UHGV virus genome: UHGV-1568604
From: a virus
Length of the DNA stretch: 12,140 nt
Reading direction: 5' to 3' (one strand)
The position numbers and the translations under genes were made by a program. Under the pieces are notes generated by a model. It did not search any database and was not told the origin of the DNA. It worked only from the letters and a program-made list of their open reading frames with translations. Each line of letters opens with the position of its first letter. The stretch's first letter is position 1. Shown here in pieces: positions 3,770 through 10,341 of the stretch.

Positions 3770-4951
3770 TTACTCAGAGTCACCGGCATCAATCGTGTCG
3801 CCGCTTATAAAGTTAAGCCCGCCTTTTTTGGCCATTGTCAGCGTTACACGAGTGAAGTAATCAGCGCCGTTGCGTGGGTGCATATCGTTGATAGCCGAAC
3901 CCCACAGCGTGGTACGGTTGACCAGCGCCGGAGTGGTCGGATGCTGGAACGGGATGGCCGGGACAGCATCACCAGTCACGAAGCCTGCTTTACCCGGATT
4001 TTCATCACGGACGTAGCACAGCACATCCATCGAGCTGAACTGAATGTTCTCTGTCGTTAAGTTCTTACAAATACCAGCAGGTACTTCGTACACTTTCACG
4101 TTACCGAACAGGGTACCGATGTAGTGAACATACGGAGTCTGGATATAGTCTTCGGCTGACTGGAAGAAATCCTTCGGCAACTGTTTGAAGAAAGATGCTG
4201 CATCAGCACCAGCAAACATCCCCATCGCACCAGAAGATTTAACGCGCTCAATAATGTCGCGATATACAGTCTGGAATTTGCCACGAATGATGGTTGCCCA
4301 TACATCAAAGGACTGGTTAACCGGCAGAGCGATGTCAAAGGTGTCGGTCGCAAGAGTACGCCAGATCATGATGCGAAGACGCAGCATATCCTGTTCATGA
4401 GACAGGTATTCCTTCAGGGTGCGGAACTGTAGGGAACCCAGGTCCAGACCAAATTCACGCTGTGCTTCATACGCCGCCTGTACCGTGTGCTCAGCCGCGA
4501 TAACGAACTGACTTGGGAACAGGGTGTATTTCTTCATTTCGTGGTTGATCAGCGGGATCAGCTCAGGAGCGGCTTCAATATTGATTTCCGTCTCAATTGC
4601 GATCTCAGTGCCTTTATCCGGCGCTTTGGAGAACGACAGGGCAATCTGACCAATGTTGTAGTTCAGAGAGCAGGTAACAGTGATTTGCTCACCAGCAGCA
4701 TTAGTAAACGAGTGAAGTAGGCTGCCGGAACCGTTATCAACAACAGACTTAATACGGTTAACGTAGATGTTAGTGCGACCTTTTCGGATTGGTACATTCT
4801 GGCCTTCGAAGTCTTCCATCTTGAAGGTTGCGGTTTTGCTGGTGCCATCGGAGCTTGCCAGCAGCATAAGAACCAAAAGATGAACCTGCCACGTTAAAGA
4901 CTTCATAGATGTCGGACTGGTCACGCGTAACCGGAATGAAGGTACACGCAT
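3770..4951 (-). CDS. Major capsid protein precursor, C-terminal part (frameshifted relative to the N-terminal part)
   Basis: Long ORF whose protein-like translation begins around ASSDGTSKTATFKMEDFEG (about 4858 downward). The first ~30 codons after the nominal ATG 4951 are out-of-frame read-through with no SD. Together with 4770..5411 it spans 1642 nt (3n+1). Confidence 0.7.
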   Translation of the reverse strand: MRVPSFRLRVTSPTSMKSLTWQVHLLVLMLLASSDGTSKTATFKMEDFEGQNVPIRKGRTNIYVNRIKSVVDNGSGSLLHSFTNAAGEQITVTCSLNYNIGQIALSFSKAPDKGTEIAIETEINIEAAPELIPLINHEMKKYTLFPSQFVIAAEHTVQAAYEAQREFGLDLGSLQFRTLKEYLSHEQDMLRLRIMIWRTLATDTFDIALPVNQSFDVWATIIRGKFQTVYRDIIERVKSSGAMGMFAGADAASFFKQLPKDFFQSAEDYIQTPYVHYIGTLFGNVKVYEVPAGICKNLTTENIQFSSMDVLCYVRDENPGKAGFVTGDAVPAIPFQHPTTPALVNRTTLWGSAINDMHPRNGADYFTRVTLTMAKKGGLNFISGDTIDAGDSE

Positions 4952-5411
4952 CAGCGGTAGCTGCCCCCAACTGAACAGGCAGGATCATCGCGAGGAATAA
5001 AGGCAGACGCATAACACCGTCAGAAACGCTCATCATCTCTGCTGCGACGGATTCCAGCATCGCTTTATTAGTGGCATCCATGCTATTGCGGGTGGACTCA
5101 ATCAGGCAGTTTTCCAGCGTCTGGTGGCAGGAGGCCAGAATTTCCGGACGCGGCATAGATTTATGTGCTGCGGCGTAGTCAGCCAGTGCACTTGCCCACG
5201 CTGTAGCGATTTGAGCGGTGGCATTATCAGAGATACCCGCAAAAACCGGGTCTTTACGTGCAGCTTCAAGGATAGATGCGGCACGCGCGGCATCATCTTT
5301 AATGAATTGGTTATCAGTACCGAACTGCGCAGTGCTTGCCCAGCCAAGCACAGCTTTAGAGCGTTTTGCGATATCTGCAATACGATTCTGGTATTCGCGT
5401 AAGTTACTCAA
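4770..5411 (-). CDS. Major capsid protein precursor, N-terminal part with delta/scaffold-like domain (frameshifted)
   Basis: AGGAAG sits 6 nt upstream of TTG 5411, giving MSNLREYQNRIADIAK...; the ORF track's TTG 5432 start would translate through that SD. Ala-rich helical N-terminus resembles a capsid delta domain. The frame stays protein-like to about ..GSSFGSYAAG (near 4857), then becomes R-rich junk until the stop at 4770. Confidence 0.65.
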   Translation of the reverse strand: MSNLREYQNRIADIAKRSKAVLGWASTAQFGTDNQFIKDDAARAASILEAARKDPVFAGISDNATAQIATAWASALADYAAAHKSMPRPEILASCHQTLENCLIESTRNSMDATNKAMLESVAAEMMSVSDGVMRLPLFLAMILPVQLGAATADACTFIPVTRDQSDIYEVFNVAGSSFGSYAAGKLRWHQQNRNLQDGRLRRPECTNPKRSH

Positions 5412-5426
5412 TTTACTCTTCCTTAA

Positions 5427-5491
5427 ACACAAGGCACTTGTGTGAATCCCTTTTCGGAAGAGATTTTATTGAAAGTCACTTGTTGACTTTC
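5427..5491 (-). promoter_or_regulatory. Candidate late promoter/operator upstream of the capsid gene
   Basis: Perfect inverted repeat GAAAGTCA-cttgt-TGACTTTC at 5471-5491 and a second one ACACAAG-gca-CTTGTGT at 5427-5443, the latter 4 nt upstream of the capsid SD. An A/T homopolymer tract lies at 5505-5519. Confidence 0.3.
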
Positions 5492-5636: not shown

Positions 5637-6638
5637 TTAAGGCTTCGGCTTTTTATCGAGGCTCTTTCTAAGGATATGCCCAATCATCCTGTCGAGTTCT
5701 TCCTGTAGCTCTTTTGAAAGTCGATTAAACTCATAAGAAAATGCACGGCCTTTCACGCGCTTCCTTGCAAAGCGATCCTTGTCCTCAAATTTCCATAATT
5801 CAGTAACTACGGACTTATCTTTAGAACCTTTATCCGTGAGTAGTGAGGCTTCCTTTGTTATCAAGCGCAGGATTTTATTTTTAACTTCATCTTCGGCCAT
5901 TTCTTCAATGGATAAGATGTCGTTTATTTCCGGGGATATGTTTTGAATAAGCTGATCAAACTCTAAATTCTTGTTCCCCATTTCGTCGCCAACAGCACAA
6001 AGCGTTTTGTAGTCCGAAAAGGTTAATTCCGACTGCACAGGGAAAAGGGCGACTAATTCTTCCGGAGCACTCGCTGCCTGGAGAGCACGCGTGACCTTCG
6101 CCTGAGACAGCCCTTCTTTGGCTGCAATATCCTTCTGACTCATCCCATCATTTTTCATTCGCATCAAACGCAGACCTATTTCTCGAATGCTGTGCTGCAA
6201 TGCTGTCTGAACGTCTTTCGCTAAATTTTGCGCTTCCTGAACGCTGATCTCCTGGTCCGTGACTAAAACCCGCAACCCTACGTTCTCTAAGATGGCAGAA
6301 GCTCGACGCCGGGAACCATCCAAAATTTCAATTTTCCCTGTAGCCCGTCTAACACCTATTGCAGGGTAAAATTGCTGATGCTTAATAGTGCTTCGGATAC
6401 TTTTTAATGATTTTGGCGTAAGAGATGTCTGGTCACGCCCGTTGTTATGCTGATCAACAAAGGTATCGCTTTCTACCTGGTTCGGAGGTATTACCTCTTC
6501 AATAAATGTGGCCTGGCGACCAGTTGATAACTTGAATACCTGCTCGACTCGATCGCCAGAGGCTGAAGAACTATCAAATCCGCTTAATATTGAAGGATTA
6601 AGGGTTCGCCCAATTGTTGGTCTGTTTTTCTTTGACAT
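5637..6638 (-). CDS. parB: Partition protein ParB (centromere-binding, 333 aa)
   Basis: 333-aa ORF directly downstream of parA with parS after its stop. Sequence is recognised as P1-type ParB from memory and includes a helix-turn-helix-like segment (MSQKDIAAKEGLSQAKVTRAL). Confidence 0.93.
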   Translation of the reverse strand: MSKKNRPTIGRTLNPSILSGFDSSSASGDRVEQVFKLSTGRQATFIEEVIPPNQVESDTFVDQHNNGRDQTSLTPKSLKSIRSTIKHQQFYPAIGVRRATGKIEILDGSRRRASAILENVGLRVLVTDQEISVQEAQNLAKDVQTALQHSIREIGLRLMRMKNDGMSQKDIAAKEGLSQAKVTRALQAASAPEELVALFPVQSELTFSDYKTLCAVGDEMGNKNLEFDQLIQNISPEINDILSIEEMAEDEVKNKILRLITKEASLLTDKGSKDKSVVTELWKFEDKDRFARKRVKGRAFSYEFNRLSKELQEELDRMIGHILRKSLDKKPKP

Positions 6639-6654: not shown

Positions 6655-7851
6655 TCAGTTAGATCTGATAAATTCAATACGGTCAAAAACTGCTTTAGCA
6701 AAATCTTCCGCAGCAATTCGCGCGTTCTTCAATGCATCAGCACTACCAACATACGTTGCCGGGTTAGCTGAAATAACAGTGTCAAAAGACTCGCCGCAGC
6801 GTTCAAAACCGTCAAGGCGAGGGAGGACAACATCAAGCATATCCCCACCGAACACTTCTTTAGCCAGGCTATGGCAATACTTATGGTCTGCCTTGTTACT
6901 CAACTTGGACATAAAACCAATGTTAGTTGCAAGCTGACACTCGCAGCCTTCATCCGAAATGAGTTTCACCAACTCAGGAAGGCGGGCAACGTATTTAAGC
7001 GATGAGTGGAAATCAACCGTTGCAGGCGGCAGAGGTGTAAACAGTATATTGGCCGAGGCCAAAGCATTTTTCAGGAAGGCGTCAAGGTGAGGACCACTAT
7101 CAACGAGGATAAAGTCATAATCGCTCTTCAGCTTATCAATCACATTTTCTTTCAGGACTGCATGGATGTTCTGACCCGGTAGATGCTCATTGCACAGCTC
7201 TCTCCAATCGGATGCAATAAAGGCATCGTCAATCGACGCAGGCATAACGTCAACCCCAGGTACAACAGAAGGAACAATAAACTCCTCTAACAGCTCTTCA
7301 CGGCTTACATTCTGCAACATAGCCTGTGCAGATGTTGCGTTTACGATACCAATAGAGTGTTTATGGCTTAAAAACATCGTTGCTGAAGATTGCGGATCAA
7401 GGTCAATAACCAGAATCCTTAAATCTTCCATCAGAAGATGAGGATGAGCACGCATTGCATGCGCCAGAGAAACCGTCGATACAGTTTTTGACACACCGCC
7501 TTTAAGATTGGAGATGAAAATCACATACGCTTCGCTGTAGCGATCCCGGTATTTTGGCACTCCGCGATGTTCATATATGTCAATGATGTTCTGAATTGAC
7601 ATCGCATATTTCATTGAAGAGCCAGCAGGGCGTTTATCGAAAACATAACCCTTTTCTTCCATTTCACTTACGGCATAGTCAACGTTCGCACGAGTCAGTA
7701 GAGGCAATTTTGCCAGTGCCGCTTTCGCATAGACCTGGTAAAACTCGTTCGCGTGTAGCTCATCCTTTTGCAACTGTACTTGTTCAGTCAGAACATTGAG
7801 CATTCTATTTGCTCTTTGAGCAACCTTGTGAAGCTGGCTGGAATCACTCAT
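6655..7851 (-). CDS. parA: Partition ATPase ParA (type Ia, 398 aa)
   Basis: Deviant Walker A motif (NLKGGVSKT), Walker-type ATPase architecture and a long N-terminal regulatory extension typical of type Ia ParA. Recognised as P1-type ParA from memory. AAGGA precedes ATG 7851. Confidence 0.95.
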   Translation of the reverse strand: MSDSSQLHKVAQRANRMLNVLTEQVQLQKDELHANEFYQVYAKAALAKLPLLTRANVDYAVSEMEEKGYVFDKRPAGSSMKYAMSIQNIIDIYEHRGVPKYRDRYSEAYVIFISNLKGGVSKTVSTVSLAHAMRAHPHLLMEDLRILVIDLDPQSSATMFLSHKHSIGIVNATSAQAMLQNVSREELLEEFIVPSVVPGVDVMPASIDDAFIASDWRELCNEHLPGQNIHAVLKENVIDKLKSDYDFILVDSGPHLDAFLKNALASANILFTPLPPATVDFHSSLKYVARLPELVKLISDEGCECQLATNIGFMSKLSNKADHKYCHSLAKEVFGGDMLDVVLPRLDGFERCGESFDTVISANPATYVGSADALKNARIAAEDFAKAVFDRIEFIRSN

Positions 7852-7985
7852 CGAAAGCCATCCTTTATGCTGTATTTTTGAATTTAATTAAAAATGCTGC
7901 ATAAAATAATAATGTATGCGTAGATGCTTGTACATAGCATTCTCTGCATGTTTGGTTCATTTTGCACGATTGAGAGTTACAAGGA
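7852..7985 (-). promoter_or_regulatory. par operon promoter/operator region
   Basis: AT-rich ~130-bp leader upstream of parA with near-palindromic elements (ATGCTTGTACATAGCAT, TTTAATTAAA). Type Ia ParA proteins autoregulate at such operators (established knowledge); exact promoter not mapped. Confidence 0.4.
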
Positions 7986-7991
7986 GGGCAC

Positions 7992-8012
7992 AAAAAAGCC
8001 CCGTTCAGGGGC
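7992..8012 (-). terminator. Rho-independent terminator after the 269-aa gene
   Basis: Minus-strand read GCCCC-UGAAC-GGGGC followed by UUUUUUG, beginning 8 nt after the stop codon at 8020-8022. It insulates the par promoter from upstream transcription. Confidence 0.7.
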
Positions 8013-8019
8013 ATCAGTG

Positions 8020-8829
8020 TTATTTGCTAAGAGCAGCGAATAATCGTTCGAAATCGATAGTATCTATAGCACGCGTAAGCGCCGGAAGTTCAGCCTCAAA
8101 GTACCCGTGTCGATCGTAAAAGAAGGGACCGAAGAGCGAGGCATGTTGGATTCTACTTCGCCCCAGCCCGGACACACAGTTAAGCCCATTACCGGCTAAA
8201 AGGCTAAAAAACTTCTCTGGATTATCGTGGTAAAGCTGGGAATCAATGGTGGCGGTTAACTCTTCCATAGGGAAGCACACCCGCCCTGTATCCCAGGGAT
8301 ATTTAGTCCGAAGCATAAACATTGCTTTCAGCAATTCACATTGAGCGCGGATCGCGTCCGGTTCATAGCCAGATATGGAGACATAAGCCACGTCCCTCAT
8401 TCCTGCGTCATCTTTGAAAGTCACGATAGAAGTAACATCCAGCTCTTTTTCGAAAGAGCAAGCAGCATCTACTGGACGCTGAAGTAAATCATTCGACTTA
8501 ATGCGCTCGAGAATCCCTCCCCACATATCATTTAGATATTCGATATGAGCCAAAACCTTATCAAGACACTCTCGTGTAAACCATTCAGTATGCCCGCCAC
8601 CGACGCTTTTCTCCCACGGCGCATTCCAGGGGAAAAAGGTTGCGTGTAAAGCCCGCTCAAGATTAACCATTGCCAAACGCGTACCACGATAGACCCGTGA
8701 AAGCGCAAAATCGGGACTCACTTGTAGCCCTTTAAACCGTGCCAATGGACCACATGAAATGCCGATTTTAAAAGTATCTCCGTTCTCTGGCACCAGAACG
8801 TAGAGGTAGTGTTGTTTCTCTTCTTGCAT
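8020..8829 (-). CDS. T5orf172/GIY-YIG-like nuclease-domain protein with an uncharacterised C-terminal domain (269 aa)
   Basis: N-terminal ~110 aa carry the T5orf172/GIY-YIG-like pattern (YLYVLV..., FKIGIS, LERALHATF, TEWF). C-terminal ~150 aa have no feature I recognise. Single gene with its own terminator, between the iteron field and the par promoter. Confidence 0.75.
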   Translation of the reverse strand: MQEEKQHYLYVLVPENGDTFKIGISCGPLARFKGLQVSPDFALSRVYRGTRLAMVNLERALHATFFPWNAPWEKSVGGGHTEWFTRECLDKVLAHIEYLNDMWGGILERIKSNDLLQRPVDAACSFEKELDVTSIVTFKDDAGMRDVAYVSISGYEPDAIRAQCELLKAMFMLRTKYPWDTGRVCFPMEELTATIDSQLYHDNPEKFFSLLAGNGLNCVSGLGRSRIQHASLFGPFFYDRHGYFEAELPALTRAIDTIDFERLFAALSK

Positions 8830-8863
8830 ATCAATACCACTGCTTGATGAGAACCGCGCAAAT

Positions 8864-9119
8864 GTTGACTATGCGCGAAGGTTAATGTGAATAGTTGACT
8901 ATGCGCGATGTGACTACAGTCAAAAGTTGACTGTAGTCGATTTAACTCCACCAAAGATCGACTATGTAAGATATTGTCGGGAGAAACGTTGACTATACGC
9001 GATGAAATGCCCCTAAAAGCCATCTCAATAGCGACTTGCAGAATATTGACGCCAGCAAAAATCCACCAGCGTCAACGAATGTCGCCTATAGTCAACTTCT
9101 CGCTATCGCATATAGTCAA
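8864..9119. repeat. Iteron field downstream of repA (incA-like copy-control locus)
   Basis: Direct copies of GTTGACTAT(G/A)CGCGA at 8864-8878, 8894-8908 and 8988-9002. Variants at 8926-8940 and 8957-8971. Inverted copies at 8910-8923, 9083-9097 and 9106-9119. Same core as the origin iterons. Confidence 0.8.
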
Positions 9120-9121
9120 TA

Positions 9122-10006
9122 TTATGGATTGCGCTTATGGATCTGGAAGCCGATTTTCCTGCCGTTTTTTATCTCTGAAAATTTAAGATATTCAATAGCT
9201 TCCAAATCTTTCATGGCTTTTCTGATAACGCTATTTTGCACGCTAACGGATGATTTGAGATTAAGCCTCGCTCTAAGGCGCTCAATGCTGACAGGTGCCG
9301 GGTTGGCGGGTAGAGCCTCAAAGAATGTATACAGTACCTTGGCCGTCTCTTTGCGCCCTAGTTTATCCAGCATCTTCAGCTTCAGGATTCGCTTATAGTC
9401 AACATAGTAAAGTTCAGATAGCTGTTTCTGCGGCTGGATCTCGATAACATCAAGCTCGGTATTCAGGCTGCTATATGCCAACAAGTTGACGTTAATGTTA
9501 TTGAGATGACCTTTTGCCGCCGGGAAGCGGAATTTGACAACTGTCTGCTGAATGCGTGTCAGAGAGTCATCAATACTTTTACGGAACGCCTTTGAAAGGC
9601 GCTTACGTGGATAGCCGCATCGATCGGCAAACTCGGAGAATGGCAGGGTGATTATGCCGTCATCATCAGGTGCGTAGTCAAACAACGCGGAGGTTATGCC
9701 CACCCACACCTTAAAATCAGTATCCATATCCAGGCGTGGACCATGAATTTCAATTCCCTCATAGCCTTCCTGCTCAACAATTTTGAGGCTTGATAGTTCT
9801 TCAGTTGCGTTCGTTGTGTTTGTTGTAACTGACGATCCGCGACGTAGCGCCACATTGGTAGATTTTAAGGTTGGCACAAACACACCTAAGCGCAACAAAG
9901 CGATGGGTTGTATAGTGCTGTTGTTATTGGGCTTCAGGCTGTGGATTTCTCCTGTATTTCCTGCAACTTCTTCAACGCTAAGGAAGCCTTTACTTTCTTC
10001 CGGCAT
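9122..10006 (-). CDS. repA: Iteron-binding replication initiator RepA (Rep_3 family, 294 aa from ATG 10006)
   Basis: Flanked by iteron arrays on both sides. Conserved initiator segments are present (QPIALLRLGVFVP, GPRLDMDTDFKVW). GGAGA lies 7 nt upstream of ATG 10006; the ORF track's TTG 10042 has no SD. Confidence 0.88.
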   Translation of the reverse strand: MPEESKGFLSVEEVAGNTGEIHSLKPNNNSTIQPIALLRLGVFVPTLKSTNVALRRGSSVTTNTTNATEELSSLKIVEQEGYEGIEIHGPRLDMDTDFKVWVGITSALFDYAPDDDGIITLPFSEFADRCGYPRKRLSKAFRKSIDDSLTRIQQTVVKFRFPAAKGHLNNINVNLLAYSSLNTELDVIEIQPQKQLSELYYVDYKRILKLKMLDKLGRKETAKVLYTFFEALPANPAPVSIERLRARLNLKSSVSVQNSVIRKAMKDLEAIEYLKFSEIKNGRKIGFQIHKRNP

Positions 10007-10087
10007 CACGGTTTCTCCATGTGTGGCGCGGCCTGACGTCAATTTGGATGGCTGTTATCAACAGCTGTGAATATTCAGACTCTAAAA

Positions 10088-10187
10088 TCGCTTACAGTCA
10101 ATGTTTCTGTCGCGTATAGTCAACAATAAATCGCGTGCAGTCAACAATAAATCGTGCACAGTCAACATAAAATCGCGTATAGTCAAT
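10088..10187. repeat. Origin iterons: five direct repeats with ~21.5-bp phasing
   Basis: TCGC(G/T)TRNAGTCAA(C) at 10088-10101, 10110-10124, 10131-10145, 10152-10166 and 10174-10187 (spacing 22/21/21/22 bp), immediately upstream of repA. An inverted repeat GCTGTT-atc-AACAGC at 10051-10065 contains the DnaA-box-like TTATCAACA. Confidence 0.85.
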
Positions 10188-10190
10188 GTT

Positions 10191-10298
10191 GATCCCATTT
10201 CAGGCCAGTAATGACGCGGCTTACAGCGATCCGGGATCTTCTTTGGATCTTCCTAGGTTCTCTTTAGGATCTGTTTATTGGATCTATGCTGTGGATAA
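10191..10298. other. Origin auxiliary region: GATC (Dam) cluster plus consensus DnaA box
   Basis: GATC at 10191, 10228, 10235, 10246, 10268 and 10281, four of them in GGATCT contexts. Perfect DnaA box TTATCCACA (seen as TGTGGATAA) at 10290-10298. Same architecture as P1-type oriR, by recall. Confidence 0.75.
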
Positions 10299-10299
10299 G

Positions 10300-10327
10300 T
10301 TGAATAAACCGGCCAACAAAGCCGGTT
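10300..10327 (-). terminator. Putative rho-independent terminator after the 130-aa gene
   Basis: Minus-strand read AACCGGC-UUUGUUG-GCCGGUU followed by UAUUCAACUU, about 15 nt after the stop at 10342, just before the origin. Confidence 0.55.
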
Positions 10328-10341
10328 GGAAGGAAGTCATA

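Follow-up and report, generated by a model that had tools for sequence, protein, structure and literature searches.

In I-TevI and in SegA-G of T4, an N-terminal catalytic domain of ~100 aa is followed by a linker and a C-terminal targeting domain, and these endonucleases are encoded by free-standing genes situated between conserved genes. The T5orf172 genes of phages (ICP1, T5-like) have likewise been described as free-standing putative homing endonucleases that lie beside essential genes at the boundaries of genetic exchange (Barth, Dunham and Seed 2023, PMC10448857). It has also been shown that origin-directed nucleases arise repeatedly from T5orf172 genes by fusion to initiator domains (PMC8263062), and CapR, a repressor derived from a homing endonuclease, provides a precedent for the domestication of proteins of this lineage (PMC8096241).

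The replicon to which the present locus must be compared is that of P1 (Lobocka et al., NC_005856), where the origin iterons, repA, the control iterons, the par promoter Ppar, parA and parB follow one another in this order. Resistance genes such as blaCTX-M are often carried by P1-like phage-plasmids, which are typed by two replicon types, IncY and p0111 (PMC9603915). The swapping of replication cassettes among these elements is already published. Additionally, two unrelated ORFs (1.27 kb) have been found inserted between repA and parA of the P1-like plasmid pSvP1 (PMC6906374), and the slot between incA and Ppar seems to be a general hotspot.

The DNA analysed here, called the window throughout, is a stretch of 12,140 nucleotides (UHGV virus genome UHGV-1568604) recognised as a P1-like phage-plasmid of the SJ46/RCS47/"p0111" type from its ORFs, its Pfam domains and its similarity to annotated records. 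Its gene content includes the tail sheath gene 22, the capsid gene 23, parB, parA, a Rep_3-type repA (repA'), upfA, mlp and ppfA. Positions 7850-9130 are 99-100% identical to phages phi456, SJ46, JL22, RCS47 and others, and equally (99-100%) to hundreds of E. coli and Salmonella plasmids, and the replicon is the 'p0111' variant of the P1-like phage-plasmids. The gene under study, ORF269, travels with this replicon type. The relevant features are the following:

5637-6638, minus strand: parB, encoding a protein 100% identical to P1 ParB; it flanks the replication cassette and lies outside it.
6655-7851, minus strand: parA, encoding a protein 100% identical to P1 ParA; also flanking the cassette and outside it.
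7906-7934, minus strand: Ppar, the promoter of the par operon (-35 TGTACA, 17 nt, -10 TATTAT), which matches the annotated Ppar of P1.
7951-7954, no strand: par-side junction of the cassette, ~66 nt past the stop codon of ORF269 and ~20 nt upstream of the Ppar -35.
7998-8012, minus strand: intrinsic-terminator-like hairpin GCCCCTGAACGGGGC followed by TTTTTT, 8 nt past the stop codon of ORF269.
8020-8829, minus strand: ORF269, a two-domain protein of 269 aa with an ATG start.
8864-9120, both orientations: incA-like copy-control iteron array, with four iterons (8864, 8894, 8926, 8988) and two opposed ones (9081, 9105).
9122-10006, minus strand: repA', a p0111 / RepFIB-like Rep_3 initiator, 42% identical to P1 RepA.
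10087-10187, minus strand: five origin iterons with 21-bp spacing, equivalent to incC/oriR.
10212-10341, minus strand: the other junction of the cassette, where homology to P1 (94%) resumes.

Outside the region of interest, the capsid gene 23 of the window is broken into two overlapping minus-strand ORFs (3770-4951 and 4770-5432) by a 56-bp deletion relative to P1, located between short direct repeats (CACCAGCA) at 4858-4866. The deletion junction is present in none of the other loci compared (0/51), and it may mean either that the window element is a defective prophage or that the assembly contains an error.

The initial annotation of this DNA had proposed that an ORF of 269 aa, followed by a terminator of its own, occupies 8020-8829 between the copy-control iterons and the par promoter, and the ORF listing and the iteron search agree with it. 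The window contains 12 copies of the 16-nt iteron GTTGACTATRCGCGAT, where chance alone predicts 0.14: six are found between repA and ORF269, one within repA and five at 10087-10187, and the last control iteron ends 34 nt before the ATG of ORF269. The proposed terminator is found as a GC-rich hairpin and T-run read from 8012 to 7998 (-11.9 kcal/mol; z = -2.8 against shuffled sequences), and it is predicted to end the transcription unit of the repA side upstream of Ppar. As the minus strand between repA and ORF269 has no predicted promoter-like or terminator-like site, the simplest reading is that the gene is reached by read-through; ORF269, whose ribosome-binding site is weak, would then receive a low level of transcription from the repA promoter, which RepA autoregulates, and its terminator would end this read-through, keeping Ppar insulated.

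Some details of the neighbouring replication region deserve mention. The start of repA' is likely the ATG at 10006 rather than the TTG at 10042 given by the mechanical ORF, as suggested by a GGAG Shine-Dalgarno sequence at about 10016-10019 and by the homologue in locus L002; the predicted protein would thus have 294 aa instead of 306. The iteron inside repA' (9388-9403, two mismatches) has an equivalent at 7613-7628 in the L002 repA, which is 83% identical, and may be a conserved internal RepA-binding site. The control array consists of six iterons in two orientations, arranged as opposed groups of four and two, while incA of P1 has nine (compared with locus L001, 6276-6560).

Homology to P1 (99%) extends from the capsid gene, across parBA and Ppar, as far as 7950-7953. 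Between this point and the second junction, a block of 2.26 kb (five origin iterons, repA', six control iterons, ORF269 and its terminator) replaces a P1 block of 1.5 kb made of the incC iterons, repA and incA, and the excess length of the cassette over its P1 counterpart is essentially ORF269. The part of oriR that contains the DnaA box TTATCCACA (10288-10296) and the GATC cluster is common to both replicons, as are, without any difference, ParA and ParB; by contrast, the iterons of the window are unlike those of P1 in sequence, its initiator is the diverged one listed above, and it has a gene and a terminator where P1 has a non-coding spacer. In reference P1, about 190 bp without any gene separate Ppar from the first incA iteron, so that the layout given in the initial annotation, with incA abutting the par promoter, was right, and in IncY elements whose par is of the P7 type the slot, also empty, measures 112 bp. 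The gene is thus absent from the P1 and P7 layouts, as anticipated. The idea that it is a discrete insertion into a P1-type repA-parA interval has to be abandoned, however, since the alignment of this interval with P1-like elements places the boundaries at 7950-7953 and 10212 and, therefore, ORF269 must have come within a whole replaced cassette of iterons, repA', iterons and ORF269. In other words, ORF269 is the par-proximal end of an alternative plasmid-replication cassette and not a simple insertion.

Two other origins for this arrangement were considered and rejected. The spacer of 190 bp in P1 is not a recognisable remnant of a deleted copy (tblastn with the four proteins of the family gave a best E value of 0.33, and blastn gave nothing), and an insertion of ORF269 within the iteron array was discarded because no iteron is found on its par side. 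As a separate observation, an iteron-like stretch (ACACACAGCACATCCTCCC) lies downstream of the nuclease gene in locus L003 (8880-8960). The differences from P1 along parA show no interpretable gradient of co-conversion.

The product of ORF269 consists of two domains:

about aa 1-105: N-terminal T5orf172 domain (GIY-YIG superfamily).
about aa 128-269: C-terminal domain after a linker, with a winged-helix core at aa 157-231 in the model.

The assignment of the N-terminus to the T5orf172 branch of the GIY-YIG superfamily, made initially from the motifs YLYVLV, FKIGIS, LERALHATF and TEWF (all of which are present), is borne out by profile and structure searches. The Pfam profile T5orf172 (PF10544) matches aa 8-85 at 26.9 bits, above its gathering threshold of 20 (E 6.9e-6; profile positions 2-87 of 101). 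A second match, at E 7e-9, is to phrog_681 ('endonuclease'), and Foldseek gives the same answer; MUG113 (PF13455), also suggested at the outset, stays with 15.3 bits under its cut-off of 22.3. An AlphaFold2 model built from five sequences (mean pLDDT 73, medium confidence) gives a GIY-YIG-type fold for the N domain, and its Foldseek matches in BFVD are confined to this domain and include T5orf172 phage proteins, ICP1 ORF88 (Odn) among them, proteins with CapR homology and a putative homing endonuclease. From its sequence, then, ORF269 is best described as an accessory gene of the T5orf172 branch of the GIY-YIG superfamily.

The pattern of a catalytic domain is present: a tyrosine in strand 1, K-x-G in strand 2, an arginine in helix 1 and a glutamate before the W-F motif. 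Y10, K21, G23, R31, E58 and E82 are invariant in seven sequences that are about 25% identical, H62, W83 and F84 do not vary among the four full-length lineages described below, and the equivalent motif positions are invariant in 13 outgroup proteins. Such invariance at ~25% identity argues for a working, if putative, active site. The roles suggested for individual residues are putative, drawn by analogy with E180 of Odn (PMC8263062) and with I-TevI.

The C-terminal part was initially said to match nothing recognisable, and at the sequence level it does remain an orphan: its ~165 aa have no match in Pfam (E up to 10), in NCBIfam or in PDB by sequence or profile. Scanning the whole protein against NCBIfam also gave no match, PADLOC-DB 2.0 gave no defence family at E up to 1, and Pfam scans detected no CapR-type zinc finger, Bro-N or KilA-N module. 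The model is more informative, since the core at aa 157-231 has the order helix-strand-helix-helix-strand-strand of a canonical winged helix, which, with medium confidence, appears closest to the WH1 domains of iteron initiators. Structure prediction of both domains, recommended initially, thus yields a GIY-YIG-type N domain and a winged-helix C domain in a model of medium confidence. In each of the four lineages the whole protein has an acidic pI (5.4-5.6), and so does the C domain (5.1-5.2), which is unexpected in a sequence-specific DNA binder and makes a protein partner as likely a target as DNA. An acidic pI is also unusual for sequence-specific homing endonucleases, judging from I-TevI-type enzymes.

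The resemblance to WH1 domains raises the question of whether ORF269 might be an origin-directed nuclease like Odn (ICP1 Gp88; PMC8263062, PMC10448857), which also joins a T5orf172 nuclease to an initiator-type domain, as ORF269 would according to the model. Here, the C domain would be a highly diverged WH1 domain of an iteron initiator that guides the nuclease to the iterons of rival P1-like elements, or to iteron-bound RepA, and destroys the rival replicon. The gene always adjoins repA and its iterons, chimeras of origin-cutting T5orf172 nucleases with initiator domains have evolved repeatedly (PMC8263062, PMC10448857), and the N domain aligns with ICP1 ORF88 itself in Foldseek. Unlike that of Odn, however, the C domain lacks sequence homology to the DNA-binding domain of an initiator: comparison with its own RepA, with P1 RepA and with an alignment of five RepA members gave BLASTP E values above 2 and an hhalign probability of 0.2%, and the C domain has no Rep_3 match in Pfam. 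Moreover, the iterons of the window and of L002 are near-identical, yet their C domains are only 32% identical, and the acidity of the domain also counts against this possibility, which we consider doubtful. A recent Odn-like chimera with the neighbouring initiator was rejected on the BLASTP and hhalign results.

In PLSDB, about 392 records have the cassette and about 391 have the full-length gene, and the window-type gene is thus linked nearly one-to-one with its RepA type; another 143 PLSDB records have the complete P1-type arrangement without ORF269. Among 5,426 complete E. coli genomes, 412 (about 8%) carry the gene, nearly always on plasmids. A profile search of 1.84 billion representative proteins returned 161 matches at E up to 1e-3, and nearly all of the best 150 of these cover essentially only the N-terminal domain, none extending past profile position ~175. 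Leaving aside fragments of the window type, three relatives among the matches listed are full-length, namely P0004 (44% identical), P0009 (27%) and P0011 (25%), which makes four full-length lineages among these matches, the window included, with identities of 25-44%. Searches for further lineages in genome, viral and metagenome contigs found the window type only, plus one relative with just the N domain, and tblastn with P0009 and P0011 in PLSDB found the window type only. The public call of P0004 (311 aa; L002 8001-8123) begins 41 codons early and reads through the iterons, producing 'AYSQH' peptides; by alignment, the true start is the methionine that matches M1 of the window protein.

All four lineages occupy the same slot in P1-like elements, flanked on one side by repA and its control iterons and on the other by parA, and they adjoin three types of RepA. 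The RepA of L002 is 83% identical to that of the window, those of L003 and L004 (Salmonella) are 83% identical to the IncY RepA of P1 and are accompanied by P1-type iterons, and that of L005 is of a third type (43-48% identical to the others). At this one homologous locus, the gene is therefore polymorphic for presence and absence, the slot being filled in the four lineages and empty in P1 and in IncY elements with P7-type par. Between L002 and L003, ParA does not differ and ParB is 98% identical, yet their repA and nuclease genes are wholly different, which indicates that the unit formed by rep and this gene was exchanged as a block, and the junction of this exchange is again about 100 nt upstream of parA. 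The divergence of the gene does not follow that of RepA. The proteins of the ORF269 family are 44% identical between the window and L002, versus 83% for RepA, while between L003 and L005, which differ in par type, the figures are 40% and 43%. Such incongruence may point to recombination or to movement independent of repA, with the reservation that only four lineages are compared, and recombination within the iteron arrays is an alternative source of it in these same four lineages.

The nearest outgroup relatives of the N domain are found in accessory islands of Cupriavidus (two loci: L082 5953-7750 and L083 1799-7983). At one of these loci, two GIY-YIG genes stand in tandem, with transposases and a RelE/ParE toxin-antitoxin pair nearby, and at the other the relative lies beside Mrr_cat, WYL and Hypoth_Ymh genes, in a defence-island-like setting. 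These surroundings bear, weakly, on the main rival to a conflict or selfish nuclease, namely a general defence effector: ORF269 would be expressed during lysogeny and degrade unrelated incoming phage or plasmid DNA, with neither homing nor competition between replicons. Apart from the company of the Cupriavidus relatives (Mrr_cat, WYL, Hypoth_Ymh, a second GIY-YIG gene, transposases and a toxin-antitoxin pair, over the two loci), this would suit the prophage-state expression expected from a plasmid-maintenance region and the relaxed or diversifying evolution and frequent loss that are typical of defence genes. By contrast, no PADLOC model matches the protein, no partner sensor gene is present and, instead of being spread over defence islands, the family is restricted to one slot of one group of phage-plasmids. 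We therefore regard a general defence effector as rather unlikely.

The evolution of ORF269 is much faster than that of its neighbours. In 45 window-type loci, dN/dS is 0.33 for the whole gene (0.31 for the N domain and 0.34 for the C domain), compared with 0.021 for repA and 0.002 for parA, so that the value for ORF269 is 15-fold or more above those of repA and parA in the same loci. Disrupted copies make up 11 of the 70 that could be assessed (16%) and result from at least six independent events, which comprise three nonsense mutations (codons 68, 112 and 228), one frameshift and two interruptions; in one further record, the gene contains an IS1 insertion. The nonsense mutation at codon 228 is that of the copy in phage SJ46 and, as SJ46 has a phage genome record, an intact gene appears not to be needed for the viability of the phage. 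These sequence comparisons indicate that ORF269 is dispensable for replication and maintenance. The initial suspicion that ORF269 is no characterised or essential core gene of these replicons is upheld by the disrupted copies, by a dN/dS of 0.33 and by its absence from P1 and from IncY elements with P7-type par.

One could argue from the many independent nonsense, frameshift and insertion alleles that ORF269 is a functionless passenger, the decaying remnant of an old invasion kept solely by its linkage to repA', and in the literature searched no function has been reported for it. Plain vertical inheritance of such a passenger would also explain the tight linkage between the gene and RepA. Nevertheless, a dN/dS clearly below 1 in both domains implies that ORF269 is under some purifying selection, 59 of the 70 copies are intact, and full-length ORFs with conserved motifs persist across lineages that are only 25-44% identical, all of which makes a mere passenger very unlikely.

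The same data bear on the opposite possibility, a domesticated, non-cutting accessory of plasmid maintenance that, like CapR, would have abandoned nuclease activity and would bind DNA or RepA to modulate copy number or handcuffing, or would insulate rep from par. The position between incA and Ppar is conserved in the four lineages, co-transcription with repA is likely according to the predictions, the WH1-like fold of the model could pair with RepA, and there is the precedent of domesticated T5orf172-lineage proteins (PMC8096241). However, the putative catalytic positions are invariant, the P1 and P7 replicons function without the gene, and neither the disruption of 16% of the copies nor a dN/dS at least 15-fold above those of repA and parA is what such a role predicts, so we find it improbable.

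Taken together, a conflict or selfish nuclease is better supported than a housekeeping role, and all three functions suggested at the outset, a selfish homing-type gene, a defence or anti-defence effector and a plasmid-competition factor, are compatible with the evidence. We tentatively give first place, while accepting that it may well prove wrong, to a nuclease that acts on related DNA lacking the gene and thereby favours itself and the adjoining replication cassette, and this reading is ranked highest because what is observed agrees with the published view of T5orf172 genes in phages (PMC10448857). The T5orf172 profile, the invariant motifs, the single slot, the 66 nt that separate the gene from the junction, its fast evolution and its frequent disruption were counted in its favour; the acidic protein and the failure to detect any of the DNA-binding modules usual in homing enzymes were counted against it. 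The position of the junctions at the end of the par homology is expected for any cassette swap.

According to this proposal of a conflict nuclease, the N-terminal domain would cut or nick DNA, and the C-terminal winged-helix domain would pick the target, either DNA or a DNA-bound protein, on non-self DNA belonging to related elements with another cassette or without the gene. The cut DNA would then be repaired with the resident copy as template, or the rival would simply be destroyed, and either outcome would favour the gene and the cassette next to it; ORF269 would thus behave as a free-standing endonuclease of the homing or marker-exclusion kind, positioned at an exchange boundary. The marker exclusion and co-conversion of flanking DNA caused by I-TevI and SegA-G offer a model for such a spread of the cassette, and ORF269 shares with these enzymes the order of catalytic domain, linker and targeting domain and the free-standing position between conserved genes. 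It differs from them in matching a Pfam model other than the classical GIY-YIG one, in being acidic instead of basic, and in that no zinc-finger, NUMOD or HTH modules were found in it. Likewise, ORF269 resembles the phage T5orf172 genes in combining a T5orf172 catalytic domain with a targeting domain that is separate and variable, in standing alone beside essential genes at a boundary of mosaic exchange and in its patchy presence among close relatives. By contrast, its catalytic domain is N-terminal, its partner domain is an acidic winged helix without sequence relatives in place of the CapR/DUF723-type zinc finger, Bro-N or KilA-N, and its setting is the replication cassette of a plasmid prophage rather than the genome of a lytic phage, homing by ORF269 being putative.

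A more specific version, to which we give only a small chance, would make ORF269 a drive or killer at the level of the replicon: a T5orf172 nuclease anciently fused to a copy of an iteron-initiator WH1 domain would target rival iterons or iteron-bound RepA, and cut rivals would be repaired from the resident copy, which would convert their cassette. Such a drive would account for the finding that about half of the P1-like phage-plasmids have the nuclease cassette, on backbones that are otherwise nearly identical to that of P1. If true, this would extend the principle of Odn from the conflict between phages and satellites to competition between plasmid replicons.

More generally, if ORF269 is an active nuclease against rivals, it would offer a mechanism by which replicon cassettes are replaced and phage-plasmids exclude one another, would be a plasmid-borne example of the T5orf172 nucleases now emerging at recombination boundaries, and could add to the site-specific nucleases a new one whose targeting domain is unusual; otherwise, ORF269 would be an ordinary accessory gene. 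In the literature searched, we found no description of the restriction of this family to one slot across three initiator types, of the fast evolution and frequent inactivation of the gene, or of its winged-helix, Rep-WH1-like C-terminal domain. The single paper that mentions the gene names its product an unknown protein, and existing annotations call it 'GIY-YIG nuclease family protein' or 'T5orf172 domain-containing protein'. In the record of phage phi456 (OR339795.1), the feature under the ORF269 match is labelled 'terminase small subunit', which looks like a mis-annotation of the T5orf172 gene or of a neighbour.
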